Source: an uncultured Gammaproteobacteria bacterium
GTDB taxonomy: Bacteria > Patescibacteriota > Microgenomatia > JAMCZE01
Length of the DNA: 38,631 bases
Reading direction: 5' to 3'
Assembly: GCA_964360925.1 (NCBI GenBank)
Contig: CAYHYP010000001.1
Coordinates: forward strand, 1 to 38,631
Within the stretch, counting starts at the first letter, position 1. Each line of letters begins with the position of its first letter. The notes beneath the pieces are model-generated. The model worked only from the letters and a program-made list of their open reading frames with translations, ran no database searches and had not been told where the DNA came from. Of the stretch, positions 4,511 to 37,106 are shown one piece after another. The translations under genes were made by a program, and so were the position numbers.

Positions 4511-5023
4511 ATGAAACAAATTAAAAGAGAAATTGTTTATGCCTTTATTGACAGTCAGAATTTGAATTTGGGAATTCAGGATCTTGGATGGCGGCTTGAT
4601 TTTAAAAAATTCAGAATATATTTAAAAGATAAATTTCGGGTTTCGAAGGCAATTATTTTTATCGGATATCTTAAGAATAATGAAGAGCTTTACAAAATGC
4701 TTCGTAATTTTGGGTACGAATTGGTTTTTAAACCAACTGTTAAGGATAAGTTTGGCAAAGTGAAAGGGAACGTTGATGCGGAAGTGGTTTTACACTCGGC
4801 AAATATTGAATATAACAATTATGACAAAGGAGTTTTTGTTTCCGGCGACGGTGACTTTTTTTGTCTGTACGAATTCTTATTGAAGAAAAACAAACTCGGA
4901 AGAATTTTAATTCCAAATAGAAATTCAGAATCGTCGTTACTTATAAAATTTCAGGATTATAAAATATTCTTGTTTAGAGATCGGGAGAAATTGGAGTTTA
5001 AAAATAAAAAGCGGGAGGCGTAG
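4511..5023 (+). CDS. NYN / LabA-like (PIN-fold) domain protein
   Basis: Start moved to ATG 4511 (MKQIKREIVYAFIDSQN), just after the previous stop. Pattern FIDxxN ... VSGDGDF is typical of NYN/LabA domains. Confidence 0.7.
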   Translation: MKQIKREIVYAFIDSQNLNLGIQDLGWRLDFKKFRIYLKDKFRVSKAIIFIGYLKNNEELYKMLRNFGYELVFKPTVKDKFGKVKGNVDAEVVLHSANIEYNNYDKGVFVSGDGDFFCLYEFLLKKNKLGRILIPNRNSESSLLIKFQDYKIFLFRDREKLEFKNKKREA

Positions 5024-12835: not shown

Positions 12836-13309
12836 ATGAATCTTATTTCTGCCCTATTTTTAGCGGTAACAACTTTTTTCCAAAGTATATTTGGGATAGA
12901 AACTCCACCTCCGCCGATTGTTAATACTATTAGAGTATATCTTGTTCCTACTGCCACCGATTTGGAAATTCACATATCAGGTAGTAATCAAAATCTAAGT
13001 GCCATTGCTGTCAGGCTGGTTTATCATTACTCAAAAACCCCAAGCGGAATAACCATTACTCCAAACGCGCTTTTATTTAAAGATAATTGGAATTTCCCGG
13101 TTAAAAAAACTATTGTCAACGCCGCCCAAAAAGCGGTAACTTTAGATTTAGCTGCGGTGAATATTAGTACGACCGGGTATCTTTTAAATTCCGATCTCTT
13201 GTTGGCCAAAATTAACTCTTCTGCCGGATTGGATCAATTCTCGTTTGATCAAAAGGAGACAAAAATTTATGGTAAAAACACAAATGAAATCCCTCTTATT
13301 TTTAACTGA
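12836..13309 (+). CDS. small secreted single cohesin-like module protein
   Basis: Signal-like N-terminus. DNWNFPVKKTIV..LDLAAVN..FSFDQKETKI matches the module landmarks of the neighbouring genes. Confidence 0.6.
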   Translation: MNLISALFLAVTTFFQSIFGIETPPPPIVNTIRVYLVPTATDLEIHISGSNQNLSAIAVRLVYHYSKTPSGITITPNALLFKDNWNFPVKKTIVNAAQKAVTLDLAAVNISTTGYLLNSDLLLAKINSSAGLDQFSFDQKETKIYGKNTNEIPLIFN

Positions 13310-14151
13310 TGGAAACAAATATGAAACGGAATATTATCATCGGCATAGTTATTTTTATCTTCCTGGTCGGGGGTTTGGGTGTGGGTTTATTTTTGGTAAA
13401 TCAAAAACAGGATGTTCGCAGTAAAGCATCAACTGATATAGGAACTGCCATCATTAACCTTTCCCCCACCACGGGAAACATCACTGCCGGTAGTTCATTA
13501 CCAATCACTATATCCCTTAACCCCGCCGGAAATGTTATTTCTGCTTTTGCTATCCGGATAAATTATTCCTATTCCGGAACAATTCCCGATCTTACCGCGG
13601 AAAATTTTCAAATTAGCCCGGCGCTTACATCCGGCGGAGATTGGACTTGCCCGGTAAAAAAATTTACTGCCGCCGGTGGAAAAGCCAATATAGACATTGC
13701 TTGCGCGAATACCAGCACAACCGGATATTCCGGCAGTGGAGTCATTAATTTAGCCACAGTTTCTTTGACCGCCACTGCCTCTGCGGCCAACAACACTTAC
13801 ACTTTGGCCTTTGACCCAAAAGAAAGTATCATCACTAAAAAATCAGACAGTTTAGATATCCTTCTTACTCCTAACAGTCGTGGGACTTACACTGTTTCCG
13901 GCACGAGTATTACTCACAAGTATTCCTGCAACACTGCCGGCACTTGTGTCCAGAATGATGCCACCGGCACTTATACAAATGCTAATTGCAATAACAGCTG
14001 TACTCCTCCTCCCCCGCCACCGGTAGTACCACCTCCGGTAACACCACCACCCACCACCCTACCCGTCACCGGCAATCCTTTCTTGACTTTTGGTTTGGCA
14101 GTAGTAGGCGTTATTGTCTCTTTTTCCTCGCTTCTTTTACTCAAGCGCTAA
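13309..14151 (+). CDS. sortase-anchored cohesin-like protein (anchoring scaffold)
   Basis: Start overlaps the previous stop (alternative ATG 13321). TM/signal, cohesin-like module (GDWTCPVKKFT..LAFDPKESII), Pro-rich linker, then LPVTG + hydrophobic helix + KR. Confidence 0.7.
   Translation: METNMKRNIIIGIVIFIFLVGGLGVGLFLVNQKQDVRSKASTDIGTAIINLSPTTGNITAGSSLPITISLNPAGNVISAFAIRINYSYSGTIPDLTAENFQISPALTSGGDWTCPVKKFTAAGGKANIDIACANTSTTGYSGSGVINLATVSLTATASAANNTYTLAFDPKESIITKKSDSLDILLTPNSRGTYTVSGTSITHKYSCNTAGTCVQNDATGTYTNANCNNSCTPPPPPPVVPPPVTPPPTTLPVTGNPFLTFGLAVVGVIVSFSSLLLLKR
14059..14148 (+). other. LPXTG cell-wall sorting signal
   Basis: LPVTGNPFLTFGLAVVGVIVSFSSLLLLKR at the extreme C-terminus, preceded by PPPPPPVVPPPVTPPPTT. 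Confidence 0.75.
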
Positions 14152-14169: not shown

Positions 14170-14850
14170 ATGTATCCGATTGTTCAAGCACCGAATGAAA
14201 TTTTGAGAACCCCGGCTGTGCCGTCTAATTTAACGCCGGAAAAACTTAAAAAAATAATTTCTGAAATGACAAAAACTCTTTTGGCGCAGAAAGATCCTGA
14301 AGGAGTGGGATTGGCGGCAAACCAAGTGGGACTTCCCTACCAAATTTTTTTGGCCCGATTTACTACTAAGAAATCCGAACCTGTCCGTGTTTTCATCAAT
14401 CCTAAAATTATTGACCATAGTGAAGAAATTCAAGAAGAAACAAAGAATTCTCCTCTTGAAGGTTGTCTCTCCGTACCAAAATATTATGGAGTAGTGAAAA
14501 GATGGAAATGGGTGAAAATGGAATACCAAGCACCACCGTCATCCTGGAGCCACGCCGTTCGTCATCCTGGAGCGAGTGAAACGAGCGATAGGATCTATCC
14601 TGGTAAAAAGATTCTATCGCCCTTCGGGCTCCAGAATGACGCTGGGGTTTCGCTCCAGCATGACGACGAAATTTTAGAAACTAGAACCGAAACTTTTGAG
14701 GGGTTTCCGGCTGTGGTTATTCAACACGAAATGGATCATTTGAATGGGAAAATTTTTGTGGAAAGAATTTTGGAACAAAACGGCCAAATGTATAAAGTAA
14801 CCGGAAAAGATAAAAAAGGCAAAGAAAAATGGGAAGAGGTAGAGCTGTAA
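14170..14850 (+). CDS. def: peptide deformylase with ~45-aa repeat-derived insertion
   Basis: All three PDF motifs are present: GLAANQVG, EGCLSVP, HEMDHLNG. The insert lies between motifs 2 and 3. Confidence 0.9.
   Translation: MYPIVQAPNEILRTPAVPSNLTPEKLKKIISEMTKTLLAQKDPEGVGLAANQVGLPYQIFLARFTTKKSEPVRVFINPKIIDHSEEIQEETKNSPLEGCLSVPKYYGVVKRWKWVKMEYQAPPSSWSHAVRHPGASETSDRIYPGKKILSPFGLQNDAGVSLQHDDEILETRTETFEGFPAVVIQHEMDHLNGKIFVERILEQNGQMYKVTGKDKKGKEKWEEVEL
14538..14665. repeat. GTCAT-hairpin repeat cluster, in frame in def
   Basis: Same unit order as 1030-1140, with an extra 5' partial unit. Translated SSWSHAVRHPGASETSDRIYPGKKILSPFGLQNDAGVSLQHD. Confidence 0.9.
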
Positions 14851-15278
14851 TTTATCATTTAACATTTATTATTTATCATTTTTATTCATGATCGCACTGT
14901 CCAAAAGTCAGGAATTAGAAAATAGAACGACAAAATTTAGTATAAATTTAGTAAATTTATGTAAGAAATTTCCAAGGGTTTTAATAACTCAGAATATTAT
15001 TGAACAACTACTTCGTTCTGGAACAAGTATTGGGGCAAATTATCGAGAAGCAAACGGAGCATCAAGTAGAAAAGACTTTCGAAATAAAATATTAATTTGT
15101 AAAAAAGAATGTAAAGAAACTGAGTATTGGTTGCAGATGTTGGCAAATGCAGCTGATGATGATTTTGTCAGTAATAGTTGTAGGATATTGTGGAAAGAAA
15201 CACATGAATTTAATCTAATATTCTCAAGTGCTGCTGCAAATACTAAATGTTAAATAAATGAAAAATAATAAATAAAAA
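14851..15278 (+). mobile_element. four-helix-bundle gene cassette bounded by AT-rich heptamer repeats / 16-of-17 inverted repeat, inserted between def and fmt
   Basis: Left arm TTTATTATTTATCATTT (14865-14881). Right arm AAATGAAAAATAATAAA (15256-15272), whose reverse complement matches at 16/17. The left flank has 7-nt periodicity (TTTATCA TTTAACA TTTATTA TTTATCA). Confidence 0.4.
14888..15253 (+). CDS. four-helix-bundle protein (23S rRNA intervening-sequence protein family, TIGR02436-like)
   Basis: GTSIGANYREANGASSRKDFRNKILICKKECKETEYWLQML is the family signature. Confidence 0.85.
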   Translation: MIALSKSQELENRTTKFSINLVNLCKKFPRVLITQNIIEQLLRSGTSIGANYREANGASSRKDFRNKILICKKECKETEYWLQMLANAADDDFVSNSCRILWKETHEFNLIFSSAAANTKC

Positions 15279-16196
15279 ATGAAAAATCAGAGGGTTGCAT
15301 TTTTTGGAACATCAAAATATTGTTTGCCGGTTTTGGAGGCTTTGAAAAACCTGCCTGCCGGCAGGCAGGAATTGGTTCTTGTAATTACCCGCGAAGATAA
15401 ACCTGTGGGGAGAAAACAAATTTTGACACCGTCTCCCGTTAAACAATGGGCAATTAAAAATGGAATTAAAGTAGATTCTAGCGGCGTAGCCGCGAGCTTG
15501 CTCATCGCCCCGCCAACGGCGGGGCTCCAGAATGACGAAAAAGTAGATTTGGCAATCGTTGCTGATTACGGAAAAATTATAAAACACGAAGTTTATGAAA
15601 AACCAAAACTGGGAACCTTTAATATCCATTTTTCAAAATTGCCGGAACTTCGTGGCCCCTCCCCAGTGCAATCAACATTGTTACGCGGTGACAAAACCGC
15701 TTGGATAACAATTTATAAACTTAAATATTATCCCGAACTGGAAATTAAAATGGATTCCGGTCCTATTTTATGGCAAAAAGAATATCCCATCCTACCCGAC
15801 GACACCACCGAATCTTTGTATACCAGATTATTCCAAGAAATCGCCAAGGAAATACCGGAAATAATAAATTCTCTAGCCGCTTGCCGCTTGCCGCTAATTT
15901 CTCAAGACCACTCCAAAGCTACTTTTTGCAAAATGCTAACTAAGGATGATGGATTTATTGAATGGGATCTTTTGAAAAACAGTATGTATGTTGCATGTTG
16001 CGATCGCAACATGATACCTACATCTCGAGTTGAAAAATTATATAACCAATATAGAGCGATGTACCCTTGGCCGGGAATATGGACTATTAAAGATGGAAGA
16101 CGAATGAAAATTTTGAAATGCCATTTGGAAAAAGAAAAAATTGTTTTGGATGAAATCCAATTTGAAGGAAAAACCCCGGAAAAATACAAAAACTAG
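15279..16196 (+). CDS. fmt: methionyl-tRNA formyltransferase with two repeat-derived insertions
   Basis: N-terminal formyltransferase fold (VAFFGTS.., ITREDKPVGRKQILTPSPVK, NIHFSKLPELRGPSPVQ). Sits next to def. Confidence 0.9.
   Translation: MKNQRVAFFGTSKYCLPVLEALKNLPAGRQELVLVITREDKPVGRKQILTPSPVKQWAIKNGIKVDSSGVAASLLIAPPTAGLQNDEKVDLAIVADYGKIIKHEVYEKPKLGTFNIHFSKLPELRGPSPVQSTLLRGDKTAWITIYKLKYYPELEIKMDSGPILWQKEYPILPDDTTESLYTRLFQEIAKEIPEIINSLAACRLPLISQDHSKATFCKMLTKDDGFIEWDLLKNSMYVACCDRNMIPTSRVEKLYNQYRAMYPWPGIWTIKDGRRMKILKCHLEKEKIVLDEIQFEGKTPEKYKN
15350..15369. repeat. perfect 20-bp palindrome CCTGCCTGCCGGCAGGCAGG, in frame in fmt (LPAGRQ)
   Basis: Identical 20-mer at 26377-26396. Imperfect copy at 19566-19585. 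Confidence 0.85.
15474..15537. repeat. GTCAT-hairpin repeat unit (reverse orientation, long form), in frame in fmt
   Basis: gattctagcggcgtagccgcgagcttgctcatcgccccgccaacggcggggctccagaatgacg. Confidence 0.85.
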
Positions 16197-19200: not shown

Positions 19201-20232
19201 TTATTTCTCATTGTTAAAAAAATTCAAAGTATCTTTAACTGCCTCGTTCCATTTTGGAACCATATTGTGATCTGCCCCCACGTACTCTTTATAAACTAAT
19301 TTGAAATTTAAAATTTGAAATTTGAAATTAAAGTCGCGATTCCAACGAACCGGAACCCATTCGTCAGCTTCTCCCTGTTGAATAAATATTGGCGCTTTTA
19401 TACTGTCTAAATATTTATCAAACGAATATTTATTGACGTCATAATCTTTTTCAAAATCAGCGGTGGCTTTTCTTAACCACAAACCTTCATCTTTATAACC
19501 GTCGGTATAATATAAAATGTTATATGGAAAAGATTTGGTCACCGGATTCCATAAAACCGTAGGAACCTGCCTACCGGCAGGCAAGATGGTTAATATTGTC
19601 AGAGCAATTTGCCCGCCATTGGAATGACCCCATAACATTAATTTACAACTGTCATCCTGACGAAGGTCAGGATCTCTCAACTTGTTTGAGTTAACACTCG
19701 CATTCGCGAGAGATGCTGAAACAAGTTCAGCATGACAGATTGAAGCTATTAAATCCATATTCGTGGTATACGTCAAAAATCTATTTTCAAAATCATCCCG
19801 ATGGCCATCGGGATCAGATTCCCCATATCCCAAAAAATCGGGGGCAAAAGTGACATAACCGTTTTTTGCCAGAACCTCGGCAACTTTTTGGGTTCCAAAA
19901 CCGGGAAAATATTCTCCCTCGTCTGCCGAACCATGAAGCAATAAAATTGCCGGTTTAACAGTGGCACTTTGGGTAGCTCCGTTTATTATTCCGGAAATTT
20001 TTTTGCCGTCGGAAGAATAATAAAATTTGTTGCCGGAAAAAGTAATCTCCGAAGGGATCCCTCCCCGTTTGCGTAAATTCTCTATCGTATATTTGTCCAG
20101 GGGTTTTTCAAAAAAGGGTTTGATTAAAGGAGAAGCCGGATATCTTTCTTTGAAATTTCCAAGCAAAAATATAACACTTACAATTATAATCGTAATTAAT
20201 AAAATTAAAAATCCAACCAGCCACTTTTTCAT
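19201..20232 (-). CDS. membrane-anchored alpha/beta hydrolase (S9/dienelactone-hydrolase-like) with repeat insertions
   Basis: N-terminal TM helix. Nucleophile elbow GHSNGG. Late GADH. Repeat inserts at 19566-19585 and 19651-19736. Confidence 0.7.
   Translation of the reverse strand: MKKWLVGFLILLITIIIVSVIFLLGNFKERYPASPLIKPFFEKPLDKYTIENLRKRGGIPSEITFSGNKFYYSSDGKKISGIINGATQSATVKPAILLLHGSADEGEYFPGFGTQKVAEVLAKNGYVTFAPDFLGYGESDPDGHRDDFENRFLTYTTNMDLIASICHAELVSASLANASVNSNKLRDPDLRQDDSCKLMLWGHSNGGQIALTILTILPAGRQVPTVLWNPVTKSFPYNILYYTDGYKDEGLWLRKATADFEKDYDVNKYSFDKYLDSIKAPIFIQQGEADEWVPVRWNRDFNFKFQILNFKLVYKEYVGADHNMVPKWNEAVKDTLNFFNNEK
19566..19585. repeat. imperfect copy of the CCTGCC..GGCAGG palindrome, inside the hydrolase gene
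   Basis: cctgcctaccggcaggcaag. Translated LPAGRQ on the minus strand. Confidence 0.7.
19651..19736. repeat. 86-nt composite triple-hairpin element, copy A (inside the hydrolase gene)
   Basis: gtcatcctgacgaaggtcaggatc-tctcaacttgtttgag..ctcgcattcgcgagaga-tgctgaaacaagttcagcatgac. Confidence 0.9.
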
Positions 20233-22658: not shown

Positions 22659-22663
22659 TTTCT

Positions 22664-25043: not shown

Positions 25044-25045
25044 GC

Positions 25046-25169
25046 GTCATTCTGGAGCCCGAAGGGCGATAGAATCTTTTTATCAGAATAGATCCTAGTG
25101 GCGAAGCCGCGAGCTTGCTCATCACTCGCTTCGCTCGTTCCAGGATGACGAAAAAATTACAGAATGACG
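25046..25169. repeat. GTCAT-hairpin cluster filling the secE-nusG intergenic region
   Basis: gtcattctggagcccgaagggcgatagaatc + gatcctagtggcgaagccgcgagcttgctcatcactcgcttcgctcgttccaggatgacg + partial cagaatgacg. Confidence 0.9.
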
Positions 25170-26330: not shown

Positions 26331-26344
26331 TTTGAAAAACATGT

Positions 26345-26447
26345 GTCATTCCGGCGAAGGCCGGAATCTCTCGCGCCCTGCCTGCCGGCAGGCAGGAATG
26401 CGAGTTCCCAAACAAGTTGGGAGATGCTGAAACAAGTTCAGCATGAC
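26345..26447. repeat. GTCAT-hairpin cluster including the 20-bp palindrome, rplK-rplA intergenic region
   Basis: gtcattccggcgaaggccggaatc..cctgcctgccggcaggcagg..gagatgctgaaacaagttcagcatgac. Confidence 0.9.
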
Positions 26448-26480
26448 ACAAGGAAGATTATAAATTGTAAATTTTGGAGT

Positions 26481-27290
26481 ATGGGCAAAATAAAAACAGT
26501 CATCATGGGAGACGAGAAAGCGGAAGAACAGGCCCGCAAAAAAGTCGTGGCTAAAAGAGTGGCTAAAAAGGCAGCCCGTCATCCTGGAACGAGCGAAGCG
26601 AGTGATGAGCAAGCTCGCGGCTTCGCCACTAGGATCTATTCTGATAAAAAGATTCTATCAGCCGCCGTTGGCGGCTTCCAGAATGACGCTGGGGAGACGC
26701 TCCAGCATGACGAAAAAACAAAAGGCAAAAATTACCTCAAAGTTAAGAGTTTAGTTGATAAAACCAAGAAATATTCTATTAACGAAGCCTTGGATTTGGT
26801 CAAAAAAACCAGCTACTCCAAATTTGACGGATCGGTGGAAGTGGTTTTCAACGTTTTATCCAAAGGCCTTCGTGGCAACGTAACTTTGCCCCACGGTACC
26901 GGCAAAACTCTGCGCATCAAAATCGCCGACGACGCTCTTGTTGCCAACCCGGTGATAGATTTTGACATTTTGGTCGCCCACCCCTCTATGATGCCAAAAT
27001 TGGCAAAAATTGCCAAAATCCTGGGTCCCCGCGGTTTGATGCCCAATCCCAAAACCGGAACTATTGGAGAAAATGTGGAGGAGTTGGTCCTTCGACTTCG
27101 CTCAGGGCAGCAAAGCTGGAAAACCGAAAGCGACTTCCCTATCATCCATACAATTCTCGGCAAGGTTTCTTTTGAAGAAAAAAAACTCTCGGAAAATTTT
27201 GCCGTCTTGTTAAAATCTATCACCAAAGACAAAATAGTTTCAATTTTTGTTAAGGCTACAATGGGCCCCAACGTCAGAGTACAAATTTAA
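26481..27290 (+). CDS. rplA: 50S ribosomal protein L1 with Lys/Ala-rich N-terminal extension and ~45-aa repeat-derived insertion
   Basis: The L1 core starts at KGKNYLKVKSLVDKTKKYSINEALDLVKK..FDGSVEV. Preferred start is ATG 26481 with GGAG 2 nt upstream. The track ORF from 26343 runs through a repeat cluster. Confidence 0.88.
   Translation: MGKIKTVIMGDEKAEEQARKKVVAKRVAKKAARHPGTSEASDEQARGFATRIYSDKKILSAAVGGFQNDAGETLQHDEKTKGKNYLKVKSLVDKTKKYSINEALDLVKKTSYSKFDGSVEVVFNVLSKGLRGNVTLPHGTGKTLRIKIADDALVANPVIDFDILVAHPSMMPKLAKIAKILGPRGLMPNPKTGTIGENVEELVLRLRSGQQSWKTESDFPIIHTILGKVSFEEKKLSENFAVLLKSITKDKIVSIFVKATMGPNVRVQI
26578..26712. repeat. GTCAT-hairpin cluster, in frame in rplA
   Basis: Translated RHPGTSEASDEQARGFATRIYSDKKILSAAVGGFQNDAGETLQHD. 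Confidence 0.9.
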
Positions 27291-28071
27291 TATTTTCTTT
27301 AATTATTGTTTTAAAATTGGCTACGAAATTATCGAGTTCCCTGCTTGATTCAATAAACGGCAATAAATCTCTATAAACATCTTCTTTATTAATTTTTTCA
27401 ACTTTTTTAATTATTTCCAGGGCAATTTTTTGAGAATTTTTAATGTCCGGTTTTAGGGACCAGTTCGCTCTTTTTGATCTTTCCAAAAACCAGACAATAT
27501 CAAATAGATCCCTGCCCTTGAAAGGAACTGCTTGTTTGTTCCCTTTGAAATATACTCTTTCTATAAACGCGGTAATTTTATTAGTGAAAAGCGTTGCTAA
27601 ATCATAGGCTAAAACAAAAATAGTAAAATCCCCCGCGGAAATAGAATTGATTTCTGTCTTAAAACTTCCCGGCTTTTGGGCGCAAAAATCACAACGGACA
27701 AAAAGCACCGGCGAATTTCCAAAATTTATAGGGAATTTCAAAAAGACGGTTTTTCCGTTACCGCTTATTTTGGTAGTCATTTCTTTATACGAAATCTCTT
27801 CAATCAAATATCTTGTAATTTTGGAAGTAAATTTTTCTATTTCAAATTCGTCTGTAAAATTAAAATCTAAATCTTCTGATAGACGGGGCAGACCATAAAT
27901 TTTTCGTAAACAAGTTCCGCCGGTAAAAATTAAGGTTTTATAATCAGGATCATTGTAAACAAAATTAAGCACGTAATTTTGCAACGCCTCTTTAAGCAAG
28001 CTCCGGGTAAAAAAAGCGTTTTTGCTTACTGATTGTTGTTCAAGAATATTTTTTAAATCATCAGAAATCAT
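27274..28071 (-). CDS. AbiEii/AbiGii-family nucleotidyltransferase toxin
   Basis: FTGGTCLRKIYGLPRLSEDLDFNF. 4-nt overlap with the upstream AbiEi gene. Its 3' end overlaps the rplA 3' end convergently. Confidence 0.75.
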   Translation of the reverse strand: MISDDLKNILEQQSVSKNAFFTRSLLKEALQNYVLNFVYNDPDYKTLIFTGGTCLRKIYGLPRLSEDLDFNFTDEFEIEKFTSKITRYLIEEISYKEMTTKISGNGKTVFLKFPINFGNSPVLFVRCDFCAQKPGSFKTEINSISAGDFTIFVLAYDLATLFTNKITAFIERVYFKGNKQAVPFKGRDLFDIVWFLERSKRANWSLKPDIKNSQKIALEIIKKVEKINKEDVYRDLLPFIESSRELDNFVANFKTIIKENIKFVL

Positions 28072-33222: not shown

Positions 33223-33368
33223 TCAATCCAATCATCCAATTCCCAATTATTCAATATCCAATCAACCAATTTCCAATATTTCAATTGGTCATTGAGAATT
33301 GGATATTGATTAGTATTGGCTATTGGTCATTGGTTTTATTGATGTTGGTCATTAGTTGATTGATTTTG
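33223..33368. repeat. CCAAT heptamer tract switching to inverted ATTGG/TTGGTCA heptamers (long imperfect palindrome)
   Basis: CCAAT-phase repeats run to ~33284, then ATTGGTCATTGAGAATTGGATATTGATTAGTATTGGCTATTGGTCATTGG.... Overlaps the last ~10 codons of galT. Confidence 0.7.
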
Positions 33369-34457
33369 TGAAATTCCCTCTTTGTACTCCTCCGCTGCTG
33401 TTTTTGGATCTACAATATTGACCAATATCCCCGTCCCCAGTTCAAAACCGGCCCGGTGAATAAACCGCGGAATAATCCGCAAATACCAATTTTGTCCGTG
33501 ATAAATATAAAAGTTGTAAGGGATGTCTGTTTCGTCATTCTGGAGCGAAGCGATGAACGAGCTCGAGGCTTCGCCACTAGCATCTGTTTTGGAAGATCCT
33601 ATCGGGCTTTGCCCTCCAGGATGACCACGTTTAAATTTATTTACAATTGCTTTTAATATTTTTTGTAAAACTACTGCCAGATCTGAAATTTGATCGTCTG
33701 TAATATGACCAAAGGTAGATTCTATCGGTCGCTTTGCTCCCTCCAGAATGACGTCATGCTGGAGCGAAGCGATAGCATCTTCTCTTGGAGTAATCCACAC
33801 CTCATATGGCCATTCCGAATAATCCGGGCAATAAGCTGTGAACTGTGAACTTTGCATTACTACGTTTGCTACCGGTTCCCGAACAATGTTTTCCACGGAA
33901 ATTTCCGGTGGCACCACTACTACTTGTGAATGCGGATGCTCCAACGACGCCCCCGCGTGAATATCGTGATTGTTAAAAATCAAAACGGTTCCAAACCTCT
34001 TATTATAGTTATATCTCTGCCTGTAAGTCTGCAAAATCAGTTCCACTTGTTTTAAGGGCAACTCGTCAATGTCCTTCTCGTGATCGGGACTATGGATAAT
34101 AACCTCATGAAACTCCGTCAAGGGGTATTTATTTGTGATAACACGAATTAACCAGTTAGAAGATCCTATCGCCCCGCCGCGGCGGGGCTCCAGGATGACG
34201 TCATTCTGGAGGGCGGAGCCCGATAGAATCTTTTTACCAGAATAGATCCTAGCGGCAAAGCCGCGAGCTTGCTCATCACTCGCTTCGCTCGTTCCAGGAT
34301 GACGTATGACAAACACTTCCTTATTTAACCTCTCGTTTCCGGGGCAAAATGGGCAACTATTTTGTGGGTGAGCCACACTATCATGCGGCCTTGTGACCCG
34401 TGCCGGGGCAATAATTACAAACTTATTTCCTTTGATATTATGTCTAAAATTTGCCAC
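33336..34457 (-). CDS. galT: galactose-1-phosphate uridylyltransferase (HIT family) with three repeat-derived insertions
   Basis: GTG start. CPFCPGNE zinc motif, EHPHSQVVVVP (HxHxQ) active site. Confidence 0.85.
   Translation of the reverse strand: MANFRHNIKGNKFVIIAPARVTRPHDSVAHPQNSCPFCPGNERLNKEVFVIRHPGTSEASDEQARGFAARIYSGKKILSGSALQNDVILEPRRGGAIGSSNWLIRVITNKYPLTEFHEVIIHSPDHEKDIDELPLKQVELILQTYRQRYNYNKRFGTVLIFNNHDIHAGASLEHPHSQVVVVPPEISVENIVREPVANVVMQSSQFTAYCPDYSEWPYEVWITPREDAIASLQHDVILEGAKRPIESTFGHITDDQISDLAVVLQKILKAIVNKFKRGHPGGQSPIGSSKTDASGEASSSFIASLQNDETDIPYNFYIYHGQNWYLRIIPRFIHRAGFELGTGILVNIVDPKTAAEEYKEGISQNQSTNDQHQ
33534..33625. repeat. GTCAT-hairpin cluster, in frame in galT (C-terminal part)
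   Basis: gtcattctggagcgaagcgatgaacgagctcgaggcttcgccactagcatc .. gatcctatcgggctttgccctccaggatgac. Confidence 0.85.
33718..33779. repeat. rev + fwd unit pair, in frame in galT
   Basis: gattctatcggtcgctttgctccctccagaatgac-gtcatgctggagcgaagcgatagcatc. Confidence 0.85.
34162..34304. repeat. three-unit cluster, in frame in galT (N-terminal part)
   Basis: gatcctatcgccccgccgcggcggggctccaggatgac-gtcattctggagggcggagcccgatagaatc..gatcctagcggcaaagccgcgagcttgctcatcactcgcttcgctcgttccaggatgacg. Confidence 0.9.
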
Positions 34458-35114: not shown

Positions 35115-35237
35115 GTCATTCTGGAGCCCTTTTCCGTCATGCTGGAGCGCAGCGATAGCATCTTCTTTTGTTTTTAGATAGATCCTATCGGTCGTTTCAC
35201 TCCCTCCAGGATGACGGTGTCAGGCTTCCAGGATGAC
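35115..35237. repeat. cluster spanning the 35104-35173 intergenic region and the 3' end of 35174-36811
   Basis: gtcattctggagccc.. gtcatgctggagcgcagcgatagcatc .. gatcctatcggtcgtttcactccctccaggatgac .. ttccaggatgac. Confidence 0.85.
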
Positions 35238-36811
35238 ACACTGGTTGGTCTTATACTATCAATTTTATCACTATTTTTATTGACTAAATAAGTCCCTTCG
35301 TCCGTCTCTACTTTGCGGCGGCGGATGGCTTTTTTGGGTTTATGTAAAACATGGAGAGGATAAAATTCAAAATAATCTTTTTCGTCAAACCAGGCGCATT
35401 TAAATTCAAAGAGGCGTAACCCGGTCAATCTGGATAAAGCCATAGCATACAGTGTCAATTGTTCAATCGGCCGCTCTTTTTCGGCGTTAGGTTTAAAGTC
35501 CAAAAGATGAATCATCCCGTTTCTAATTTGCACAAAATCAATATGGCCGGTAATCAATTTTGGTAATTTGTCATGCTGGAGCGTCTCTGCGTCATTCTGG
35601 AGCGAAGCGATAGAATCTATTTTTTCGTTGGAAGATCCTATCGTCCCGCTTAGCGGGACTCCAGGATGACGCTGAAATATCTCAAATCCCAGTTGGCTCT
35701 TCATATGTTCCAAATCGTCCCGCGTCAAATACACCGGCACTTCCGTGGCGACAGTGACAGAATCGTTATAAAGCATAAATTTTTGCAAAATCTCATGGCG
35801 GTTTTTTCTCTCTTTTGCCCCCTGCAAAACAAACGCCGCCAATTTTGTGGCGTAATTGGTTTTTCCCCGGACGATCATGGCTGTTTTGGAAAATGCCAGC
35901 GGCGTTTCCGAAGCCCGTTCTCCCTGGTTAAAATACTGATGTGGACACTCCCCCGGCACCATTTCCAAAAACTCCACCAGCGGAGTAAAAAGCCGGTGAT
36001 GGAAATTTTCCTGCATAATAAGCCTGCATTTTGCCCGGTGAAATCTGAATCTGTAAAGTTGCCGGTGCGCCAAAGTGGCGGTGATTATCATGTCTGTTGG
36101 TTTATATTTTTGCATGGCAAAATCCCGCATTCTTAAAAACGGCAAATCGTCTTTAAATTCCGTGATCCAACTTGATAAAGTTGATGGATTTATTGATAAC
36201 GTGTCATGCTGGAGTGTCCCCCCTGCGTCATTCTGGAGGGCGGAGCCCGATAGAATCTTTTTACCAGAATAGATCCTAGCGGCAAAGCCGCGAGCTTGCT
36301 CATCGCTCGTTTCACTCGCTCCAGGATGACGAACGGCAGGGCTCCAGGATGACGCATGGGCGTTCACCCTCCTACAACTCTCCTCCAGCGAATATCCCAA
36401 ATTATAAAGTGAAATGGCGTCAAAAATGGTAGCCAGAGGATAATGTTTTCCGGAAACGGAATGCGGAGTAAAAGTTTTGTGACAATCTTTGCAAATATAA
36501 AGTTGTACATTCTCCCGTTTTTTAATCCGCAGTCCCCGTCTGACAAAATTTTTATTTAAACAATACGGGCAACAAAATGTGTCAACAATAGGTCTAATTG
36601 TCATCCCAGACAAGCTGGGAGATGCCGGATCGAGTCCGGCATGACACAGTGTCATTCCGGCCTCCGAGCCGGAATCTATACTCGTGTCATCCTGACGAAT
36701 GTCAGGATCTCTCAACTTGTTTGAGTCACTCGCATTCGCGAGAGATCCCGAAACAAGTTCGGGATGACGCTTATTCAATAATTTTTTAATCCCTTCAAAC
36801 ATATTTTTCAT
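35174..36811 (-). CDS. Zn-ribbon + PD-(D/E)XK-nuclease-like protein, heavily invaded by hairpin repeats
   Basis: CCPYCLNKNFV..YICKDCHKTF zinc ribbon. C-terminal GHIDFVQ..IHLLDFKPN resembles a D...(D/E)xK nuclease motif. Four repeat clusters. Alternative start ATG 36604. Confidence 0.55.
   Translation of the reverse strand: MKNMFEGIKKLLNKRHPELVSGSLANASDSNKLRDPDIRQDDTSIDSGSEAGMTLCHAGLDPASPSLSGMTIRPIVDTFCCPYCLNKNFVRRGLRIKKRENVQLYICKDCHKTFTPHSVSGKHYPLATIFDAISLYNLGYSLEESCRRVNAHASSWSPAVRHPGASETSDEQARGFAARIYSGKKILSGSALQNDAGGTLQHDTLSINPSTLSSWITEFKDDLPFLRMRDFAMQKYKPTDMIITATLAHRQLYRFRFHRAKCRLIMQENFHHRLFTPLVEFLEMVPGECPHQYFNQGERASETPLAFSKTAMIVRGKTNYATKLAAFVLQGAKERKNRHEILQKFMLYNDSVTVATEVPVYLTRDDLEHMKSQLGFEIFQRHPGVPLSGTIGSSNEKIDSIASLQNDAETLQHDKLPKLITGHIDFVQIRNGMIHLLDFKPNAEKERPIEQLTLYAMALSRLTGLRLFEFKCAWFDEKDYFEFYPLHVLHKPKKAIRRRKVETDEGTYLVNKNSDKIDSIRPTSVSSWKPDTVILEGVKRPIGSI
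35570..35671. repeat. cluster in frame in 35174-36811
   Basis: gtcatgctggagcgtctctgc-gtcattctggagcgaagcgatagaatc..gatcctatcgtcccgcttagcgggactccaggatgacg. Confidence 0.85.
36203..36354. repeat. cluster in frame in 35174-36811
   Basis: Same unit series as 34200-34304, plus flanking partial units. Confidence 0.9.
36600..36769. repeat. cluster including composite element copy C, at the 5' end of 35174-36811
   Basis: gtcatcccagacaagctgggagatgccggatcgagtccggcatgac..gtcattccggcctccgagccggaatc..copy C (36686-36769). Confidence 0.9.
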
Positions 36812-37059
36812 TTTCTTCCAGATTTCTACTCTTTTCTTTAAAAATTATTTAAATTTGTTTTTTATAATTCGTTTTGTTCTCTTTCTTGCTCATCCAAGAA
36901 AGCGAACCGAAAGAAAGATGCCCGGTGCTCACGGTTCTGAAAATCCTCTTTTCGTTCTTGAGGAACCTTCCCACGCCTACGGCGGGGTATACCTCTACGA
37001 ACTCAAGGTGTATTTTCTTTCACCTTACCGCAATCGGGTTCAATGGAAAATTCATATTC

Positions 37060-37106
37060 GTCATTCTGGAGCCCGGAGGGCGATAGAATCTTTTTACCAG
37101 GATGAC
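37060..37106. repeat. intergenic unit plus partial unit
   Basis: gtcattctggagcccggagggcgatagaatctttttaccaggatgacg. Confidence 0.85.

Follow-up and report, generated by a model that had tools for sequence, protein, structure and literature searches.

Rickettsia palindromic elements (RPEs) were reportedly described by Ogata et al. in 2000 and 2002. In Rickettsia, the presence of palindromic elements in frame within open reading frames (ORFs) is established and RPE-decorated proteins have been reported to be expressed in vivo (PMC10969869, PMC3733652); for the whole genome of R. conorii, 44 RPE copies were reported (PMC10969869). RPE-4 and RPE-6 belong, together with Neisseria dRS3, to the superfamily of CGTC-tagged repetitive extragenic palindromic (REP) sequences (Di Nocera, De Gregorio and Rocco 2013, PMC3733652), whose intragenic clusters encode 20-82 aa and for which no dedicated transposase is known (PMC3733652). 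A further relevant architecture is the REPIN (Bertels and Rainey 2011, PMC3116915; Bertels et al. 2017, PMC5581495), in which two inverted REPs, separated by a short spacer, fold into a hairpin. Finally, bacterial miniature transposable elements with inverted repeats (MITEs) can be part of transcripts, form hairpins that are sensitive to RNase III and occasionally give rise to in-frame fusions (PMC10969869, PMC5896051). Here we analyse a palindromic element within the peptide deformylase gene (def) of an uncultured bacterium of the Patescibacteria, or candidate phyla radiation (CPR), on contig CAYHYP010000001.1, which was studied over its full 38,631 nt (hereafter the window); in the analysis, the assignment to Patescibacteria was based on how homologs and related loci are named. 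The gene has 45 extra codons, and we consider it likely that these represent a selfish, RPE-like palindromic repeat of CGTC-REP/REPIN-like design that is tolerated in def and most likely translated. The gene, the inserted segment and the palindrome are placed as follows.

14170-14850, + strand: peptide deformylase (def) coding sequence, 226 aa, with GLAANQVG, EGCLSVP (E97) and HEMDH (H186) intact

14530-14664, + strand: segment inserted relative to an insert-free ortholog, 135 nt or 45 codons, residues 121-165 (DNA alignment with loci L002 and L001, and protein alignment)

14537-14665, no strand assigned: near-perfect composite palindrome of 129 nt, a nested REP doublet forming a single long hairpin whose stem ends exactly at both bases

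The product is a member of the peptide deformylase family, with the G-x-G-x-A-A-x-Q, E-G-C-L-S and H-E-x-x-H motifs and the deformylase fold all present. It matches TIGR00079 with 128.8 bits (NCBIfam cut-off 103.95) and PF01327 with E = 1e-39, the latter match being split into two stretches (1-120 and the C-terminal part). An earlier note, made from the sequence alone, had stated that the gene retains the three motifs and that 89 residues separate EGCLS from HEMDH, and had given a spacing of 44 (E88-H132) for the E. coli enzyme. The family matches and alignment bear out the motifs, and the distance from E97 to H186 is indeed 89. Among close orthologs, 56 of 120 have the spacing of 44, as do 9 of 16 loci from related genomes; the solved structure of the A. 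baumannii enzyme has it as well, with the numbering E88 to H132, so that the figure for E. coli holds. The closest insert-free ortholog (P0002, locus L002) is 91% identical outside the loop, and relative to it the window has exactly 135 nt extra, placed between ...MEYQ and DEILETR... and encoding APPSSWSHAVRHPGASETSDRIYPGKKILSPFGLQNDAGVSLQHD as residues 121-165. The nearest relatives, at 91% and 82% identity, both lack the insert. The same note had proposed an in-frame repeat insertion of ~43 aa between motifs 2 and 3 at 14538-14665; the insertion stands, its size is corrected to 45 aa (135 nt), and the coordinates agree with those of the palindromic element (14537-14665). The ortholog alignment that it suggested as a check does recover close relatives without the insert (P0002/L002).

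The element itself is a composite of inverted REP units, arranged as follows.

14537-14559, + strand: outer left head CGTCATCCTGGAGC plus a 9-nt spacer, pairing with the outer right head

14560-14595, + strand: inner forward REP unit, CGTC-ATCCT-GGA-(variable part)-GAT-AGGAT-C, defined by unit anatomy and covariation

14596-14609, + strand: AT-rich spacer TATCCTGGTAAAAA, the hairpin loop between the tail-to-tail units

14610-14641, - strand: inner reverse REP unit GATTCTATCGCCCTTCGGGCTCCAGAATGACG

14642-14665, - strand: 10-nt spacer (14642-14651) plus outer right head GCTCCAGCATGACG (14652-14665)

As RNA, 14537-14665 folds with a minimum free energy of -66.5 kcal/mol, compared with -40.9 +/- 3.7 in shuffled sequences (z = -6.9), and as DNA with -33 kcal/mol (z = -5.0). 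Parts of it recur elsewhere in the window. The inner forward unit region is 95% complementary to 35177-35216, the inner reverse unit is identical over 35 nt to 1082-1116 and, inverted, to 25045-25079, the type of spacer found at 14596-14609 is seen again in copies at 25076, 34230, 36257 and 37090, and the outer right head also occurs at 1127-1140 and 26699-26712. The def copy is thus a mosaic, with 96% identity to 36302-36354 (opposite orientation), 92% to 1082-1140 and 96-98% to 25044-25097 and 37059-37103. From the window and related metagenome contigs we took 47 units with an extraction pattern that required a CGTC or TGTC tag, so that all 47 begin with CGTC or TGTC by construction. These units can be written as [C/T]GTC-ATNCT-GGA-(inner hairpin, variable and mostly GC-rich)-GAT-AGN'AT-CTN. 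The stem opens with A-T pairs at positions 1 and 2, ATNCT pairing with AGN'AT in all units, and the third stem position (N/N') covaries in 47 of 47 (C-G, T-A or G-C). As this covariation has no exception, it is the structure that is conserved, the inner sequence being free. In the def units, the outer stem is accordingly 5 bp long, the 3x3 internal loop (GGA/GAT) is conserved and the inner hairpin is variable. The window also contains a second family, in which the stem measures 8 bp and the loop 4 nt; one member is TGTC-ATCCTGAC-GAAG-GTCAGGAT-CTC at 19650, and further copies lie at 22663 and 36685. An Rfam scan of the window at gathering threshold returned four tRNAs only, with no family overlapping the insert.

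The element in def is one of many. Allowing up to one mismatch, the head motif CGTCATYCTGGAG occurs 33 times in the window, against 0.01 expected, and REP-type clusters number 25, amounting to ~2.1 kb or 5.4% of the contig. They occur in unrelated genes as well as in intergenic spacers, in both orientations and without a common context, and their dimers are both tail-to-tail and head-to-head, the latter sharing GACGTC. About 15 of the 25 lie inside ORFs, nine in number. Several of these copies are listed below.

1036-1140, + strand: sister composite copy in a Wzy_C (O-antigen-ligase-like) ORF (42-1256), with the same unit order as in def, frame ...KILSPFGLQNDVSISLQHD

15465-15537, + strand: REP-derived segment in fmt (15279-16196), in frame, read as KVDSSGVAASLLIAPPTAGLQNDE

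26577-26712, + strand: sister composite copy in the N-terminal extension of ribosomal protein L1 (coding sequence 26481-27290), read as RHPGTSEASDEQARGFATRIYSDKKILSAAVGGFQNDAGETLQHD

34164-34304, - strand: composite copy in a GalT-like ORF (33336-34457, - strand), in frame

36202-36354, - strand: fullest composite copy, 153 nt, in ORF 35174-36811 (- strand), in frame

The Wzy_C copy is 92% identical to that in def over 59 nt, which agrees with the claim of the earlier note that the same unit order is found in a membrane protein at 1030-1140; this membrane protein ORF has two repeat sites. The def copy looks like a shorter version of the one at 36202-36354, whose arms are 85-96% identical and in which ~20 nt (36282-36301) have no match in def. 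ORF 35174-36811 contains three or four in-frame repeat sites and, in addition, a stop codon supplied by a REP (35174-35238), and the GalT-like ORF has further clusters at 33533-33625 and 33717-33788, giving three sites in total. The segment in fmt is shorter or missing in fmt orthologs. For L1, the 269-aa protein starting at 26481 is also called by NCBI; its REP-encoded in-frame segment is 45 aa long, includes the peptide RHPGTSEASDEQAR and is the same in a second assembly (P0132). A cluster just upstream, at 26344-26448, was considered as part of L1 and rejected, being intergenic by alignment to PDB structures and by the ribosome-binding site and ATG of the coding sequence starting at 26481. 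Other repeat-bearing ORFs encode an alpha/beta hydrolase, L10 and a Peptidase_S74-domain protein, the last with four small units.

An important question is whether these sequences are read by the ribosome. Every intragenic cluster leaves its host ORF open. The composite copies have stops in most frames, with on average ~1.6 of the six open, and four of the five that are intragenic (def, L1, the GalT-like ORF and ORF 35174-36811) use one shared frame, RHPG...LQND...LQHD; the fifth, in Wzy, has only the second half in common. The peptides read from the repeats are:

def: RHPGASETSDRIYPGKKILSPFGLQNDAGVSLQHD

L1: RHPGTSEASDEQARGFATRIYSDKKILSAAVGGFQNDAGETLQHD

ORF 35174-36811: RHPGASETSDEQARGFAARIYSGKKILSGSALQNDAGGTLQHD

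GalT-like ORF: RHPGTSEASDEQARGFAARIYSGKKILSGSALQND...

Wzy: ...KILSPFGLQNDVSISLQHD, with only the second half in common

The same frame is used in an unrelated metagenome contig by an in-frame REP doublet within the gene for TsaD, an essential tRNA-modification protein (L091, 994-2349), which reads RHPGARSAIGSQANTKILSARQLASLQNDA. Taken over the whole family, the open frames are strong evidence that frame-breaking insertions get removed, and such removal is expected only if the ribosome must read through the elements. The frame used in def is hydrophilic, with a grand average of hydropathy of -0.69, and the predicted tryptic and junction peptides of the insert are MEYQAPPSSWSHAVR, HPGASETSDR and ILSPFGLQNDAGVSLQHDDEILETR. 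By inference, the mature protein contains the insert and retains its enzymatic activity.

The insert is also found outside this contig. It is identical in three assemblies (the window, ENA contig L001 and P0123), which makes a misassembly unlikely; a sister contig, ERZ1292636, comes from the Hainich groundwater wells. L001 is 99% identical to the window over 3.27 kb, and the differences are almost all located directly 3' of the element: L001 has an in-frame 21-nt deletion at 14666-14686, followed by 13 substitutions (8 of them synonymous) up to 14823, and only two substitutions in the rest of the alignment. Both variants keep the def frame. The divergent tract (14666-14823; L001 512-648) begins exactly at the right end of the element and looks like a recombination or gene-conversion tract bounded by it.

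For the fate of the insert in the protein, we ran AlphaFold2 on a 113-sequence alignment of def. The model has a mean predicted local distance difference test (pLDDT) score of 83 and a predicted TM score of 0.80, with values above 90 in the core and below 50 for residues 131-165, and its target-normalised TM scores against solved deformylases are 0.8-0.9. The insert is modelled at a beta-hairpin tip, flanked by strands 114-121 and 170-177, and is predicted to be a disordered loop outside an intact deformylase fold. The earlier note had placed the insert at a beta-hairpin turn as a plausible tolerated surface loop and had suggested structure prediction as a check; the model is in line with both, since the insert loops out with low pLDDT from a confidently predicted core. 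All this is compatible with a tolerated and presumably translated surface loop.

How does this element compare with those already described? Like the CGTC-tagged REPs (PMC3733652), its units have an unpaired CGTC/TGTC tag, a stem that opens with A-T pairs and a short tail, they form inverted dimers that fold into larger structures, and several subfamilies reside together. They are also dispersed at high copy as inverted dimers (25 clusters on a 38.6-kb contig), many clusters are intragenic and no dedicated transposase lies nearby. With its stem of 8 bp and loop of 4 nt, the co-resident TGTC family (19650) has the geometry published for CGTC-1. The def units are a structural variant of this group. 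Differences are that most dimers here are tail-to-tail with their heads pointing outwards, as against mainly head-to-head dimers in the published set, and that the host phylum lies outside the five listed in 2013 (PMC3733652). The resemblance to RPEs lies in ~100-150 bp palindromes that are dispersed in a small, reduced genome, sit in frame in unrelated and often essential genes (PMC10969869) and are read as hydrophilic peptides at fold-compatible surface positions; in addition, the units here are CGTC-tagged, like the CGTC ends of RPE-4 and RPE-6 (PMC3733652). Unlike RPEs, the element is found in Patescibacteria/CPR rather than in Alphaproteobacteria, is a nested doublet of small REP units instead of a single long RPE-1-type unit, and belongs to a family with a much higher local density (~15 intragenic clusters in 38.6 kb). 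We therefore regard it as an RPE analogue, likened by pattern and not by sequence, and do not assign it to an RPE family. As in REPINs, two inverted units form one hairpin and there is no target-site duplication; the tag, however, is CGTC and not GTAG, and many copies are intragenic whereas classical REPINs are mostly extragenic. With MITEs such as the Neisseria Correia elements, ERIC and Coxiella QMITE (PMC10969869, PMC5896051), the element shares its small size, its non-autonomous nature and its inverted termini, here of 14 nt, but it differs in lacking a target-site duplication at def, in that no parent insertion sequence (IS) with the same ends was found, and in being built of REP-type tagged hairpins. 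What we describe is a known phenomenon, combining the RPE pattern with a CGTC-REP/REPIN-like design, in a new phylum, with a variant unit geometry and a nested arrangement.

The likely course of events is the following. A composite of two full units, joined tail-to-tail around an AT-rich spacer in REPIN-like fashion and nested within a second pair of inverted 14-nt heads, would have landed, not long ago in the ancestry of this lineage, with ~6-7 extra bases at the beta-hairpin tip that lies between motifs 2 and 3. It would have survived there because it adds a number of bases divisible by three and is read in a stop-free frame, allowing the ribosome to read through, and the product would be an otherwise normal deformylase with a hydrophilic, disordered 45-residue surface loop. 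Purifying selection on def, which is presumably essential, would remove frame-breaking insertions and keep harmless ones, and this would explain why every intragenic copy is open and why the composite copies are read in one frame.

Several observations weigh against this account. It does not account for GCACCAC, the 7 nt that separate the old sequence from the palindromic element. Taken by itself, the def copy is stop-free in three of six frames and, at a prior of about 1 in 6, its open frame is weak evidence; of the argument in the earlier note that the open frame speaks for selection on translation, the inference thus holds through the family-wide pattern, and the reasoning from the single copy does not. 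The 5-bp stem, internal loop and variable hairpin of the def units differ from the 8-9 bp stem and 4-5 nt loop of described CGTC-tagged REPs. A search of the 38.6-kb contig for a transposase, by tblastn with the RAYT-like protein of relatives (see below) and by Pfam scans of the long ORFs, a few short ORFs excepted, found none, and the hairpin flanking the RAYT-like gene of those relatives differs from the CGTC units, leaving mobilisation without direct support. Finally, the hairpin has 58-bp arms, and in the mRNA it could be a target for RNase III or slow ribosomes.

This last point leads to the strongest of the alternatives, namely that the hairpin is kept for a role in RNA or DNA, for example as an RNase III or mRNA-stability site, as a translational pause that adjusts def-fmt expression or as a recombination or replication signal, with the peptide as a by-product. 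The hairpin is very stable, it is structure rather than sequence that is conserved across units (covariation in 47 of 47, with variable inner hairpins), REPs have been proposed to affect mRNA stability and termination (PMC3733652), and the right end of the element is exactly where the tract of divergence and indels begins in the sister assembly. Conservation of structure is, however, equally expected if a transposase recognises the hairpin. Moreover, the elements are scattered over unrelated genes and spacers in both orientations without a common context, close relatives manage without the element, and the inserts of other lineages at the def loop differ in sequence and size. We consider such a role improbable as the reason for the presence of the element, and prefer a tolerated, selfish and translated repeat.

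The possibility that def, in its filled form, is decaying into a pseudogene while another, intact copy elsewhere in the genome does the work appears more remote still. Only 38.6 kb of the genome are visible, so a second def is possible, and the insert is the largest among the 120 orthologs. Against this, all catalytic motifs and 20 family-invariant residues are intact, and comparison with the insert-free gene of L002, after removal of the insert, gives a dN/dS of 0.056. The insert and the adjacent deletion are both multiples of three and the downstream changes are mostly synonymous; the conserved def-fmt neighbourhood is retained in the window, and the exact protein sequence is present in NCBI, where the gene is annotated as intact.

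Removal of the segment before or during protein synthesis, by intron-like excision, translational bypass or as an intein, is very unlikely, although the earlier note had named removal from the mRNA as a refuting case and the compact hairpin does bring the ends of the element together. There is no Rfam match, 129 nt is far below the size of group I or II introns or inteins, catalytic features are lacking, and there is no stop codon or pair of take-off and landing codons as in T4 gene 60. In addition, excision would not require a length divisible by three, stop-free frames or a shared frame, yet the ~15 intragenic clusters keep the frame. The terminator, intron, intein and bypass readings of the element were all considered and rejected. 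An ancient, lineage-typical expansion of the hairpin, from which the repeats were derived or to which they are similar by convergence, is suggested by the intrinsic variability of the site (62 of 120 orthologs have a longer than basal loop) but is highly unlikely given nearest relatives at 91% and 82% identity without the insert, the recurrence of its units, in unchanged order, in Wzy, L1 and intergenic DNA, and basal-loop nearest neighbours for each long-loop ortholog.

With regard to mobilisation, comparison with the empty site in L002 reveals no target-site duplication on either side of the def insert. This fits single-strand transposition by a Y1 enzyme of the IS200/IS605 or REP-associated tyrosine transposase (RAYT) type and argues against a classical MITE, and the element presumably moves as single-stranded DNA via a RAYT-like Y1 transposase. 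As in REPIN/RAYT systems, a vertically inherited RAYT-like Y1 gene is found in the def-fmt neighbourhood of relatives; unlike in those systems, there is no cognate RAYT on the contig, and the RAYT-like gene of the relatives is flanked by a different hairpin. This gene, of the HUH type, lies directly downstream of def in L083 (7064-7717), L011 (2321-2971) and L002 (1682-1861), the three being 72-82% identical to each other. The protein has the HUH and Tyr motifs and matches NF047646 at 1e-8, with 35 bits against a cut-off of 80. On both sides the gene is flanked by a conserved hairpin, CTAGCTTCGCAAGAGC-N-GCTCTTGCGAA-CGTA, with compensatory changes between loci. In the window, its slot is occupied by a gene for a four-helix-bundle protein of the 23S rRNA intervening-sequence protein family, and in L083 such a gene is found upstream of def. 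A link between the RAYT-like gene and the CGTC units is speculation. ORF 35174-36811 was rejected as a candidate mobiliser, since it has only a Zn-ribbon and a sub-threshold PD-(D/E)XK match.

The def loop has also been filled in other lineages. The distance between motifs 2 and 3 exceeds 44 in 62 of 120 orthologs and is at least 54 in 14 of them, and because each long-loop protein has nearest relatives with a basal loop, the gains are independent. The inserts of these other lineages are palindromic at the DNA level but different in sequence and size. L083 and L084 have different tail-to-tail CGTC-REP dimers (CGTC-ATTCTGG...CCAGAAT), read as RHSG...QHD and RHSG...QND, the def loops of L100 and L012 contain single units, and those of L099, L003 and L005 contain unrelated palindromes. 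The tip of the def hairpin is thus a recurrent insertion site, and we prefer structural tolerance over target preference as the reason. A more far-reaching idea is that insertion of palindromic elements is a general and ongoing source of loops in core proteins of CPR/Patescibacteria (def, fmt, L1, TsaD), and that the def hairpin tip is a true landing site; we put this forward tentatively and regard it as rather doubtful. If true, the hot spot at def might be promoted by a domesticated Y1 transposase, the RAYT-like one encoded immediately downstream of the gene in several relatives, and the orphan CGTC-type REPs would gain a candidate mobiliser.

The repeat family is not general to the clade, since among species representatives of the Genome Taxonomy Database (GTDB) the 10-kb flanks of related def genes are without the head motif, except in L012. 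A doublet scan of 241 million metagenome records gave 14 contigs, most of them with 35-49% GC and two with 64-65%. An exhaustive search of 1.84 billion representative proteins with a profile of the REP peptide gave seven hits, of which three or four are true: P0137-P0139 are Mur-ligase-like, WecB/TagA-like and FolC-like proteins, and P0133 is probably the GalT-like protein of the window itself. P0134 and P0135 were rejected as unrelated repeat proteins. By these searches, the composite is confined to a narrow lineage and the tagged-hairpin design is broader. In the literature on CPR/Patescibacteria, of which our coverage is incomplete, we did not find this pattern described, be it as REP, MITE, REPIN or palindromic elements. 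Viral contigs contained no doublets, and two contained single units, one of these also having a terminase gene. One stretch of viral DNA, L102 (an IMG/VR contig of 5.4 kb), has three REP units at 922-961, 1430-1464 and 4802-4838, and genes for a barstar, a Prp protease and the large subunit of a phage terminase. The REP family may therefore also reside on (pro)phage DNA; two viral contigs with single units are insufficient for a claim of phage spread, and we make none.

This mechanism class has been known from Rickettsia since 2000, and the value of the present case lies in its extension to a new phylum at high density and not in a new principle. It shows that selfish DNA is not absent from CPR bacteria, streamlined and ultra-small as they are, and that at a coding density of ~90% REP-type hairpins end up in genes, including those of the translation apparatus, and persist where they are harmless. 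They would be one source for some of the unexplained insertions in CPR proteins. Such inserts split profile hidden Markov model matches and can mislead annotation, structure prediction and phylogeny. In addition, they provide a natural experiment on which loops of deformylase, an antibiotic target, tolerate large insertions.

A number of minor observations concern the repeats elsewhere in the window. The spacers between L11 and L1, between L10 and L7/L12 and upstream of NusG are filled with REP clusters. At two head-to-head junctions (33744-33757 and 34191-34204), the REPs share their tags, resulting in the perfect palindrome ATGACGTCAT. A short perfect palindrome with the core CCTGCCGGCAGG is present at 15354-15365, 19570-19581 and 26381-26392 (6 matches vs. 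0.18 expected); its translation is LPAGRQ in both fmt and the alpha/beta hydrolase, and a further copy lies in the L11-L1 spacer. The peptide PAGRQ is found in other loops of the def orthologs P0033, P0092 and P0104 and in the TsaD of L091, whose gene carries mini-palindromes of the PAGRQ type. The LPAGRQ palindrome looks like a second, tiny type of in-frame palindromic insert. ORF 35174-36811 (- strand) encodes a protein of 545 aa with an N-terminal Zn-ribbon of the IS1/IS1595 type and a sub-threshold match to PD-(D/E)XK nucleases.

As for the genes around def, the protein encoded upstream (13309-14151) has no Pfam match; at its C-terminus, a linker rich in Pro and Thr is followed by LPVTG and by a hydrophobic tail that includes basic residues, which resembles a sortase-type cell-wall sorting signal. 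The gene between def and fmt (14888-15253) encodes a four-helix-bundle or 23S rRNA intervening-sequence protein (PF05635, TIGR02436). Finally, three genes for AbiEii-type toxins, the nucleotidyltransferases of type IV toxin-antitoxin systems, are present on this one 38.6-kb contig (6990-7700; 18291-18965, - strand; 27274-28071, - strand), and one of them splits the L11-L1 / L10-L7/L12 ribosomal protein cluster.

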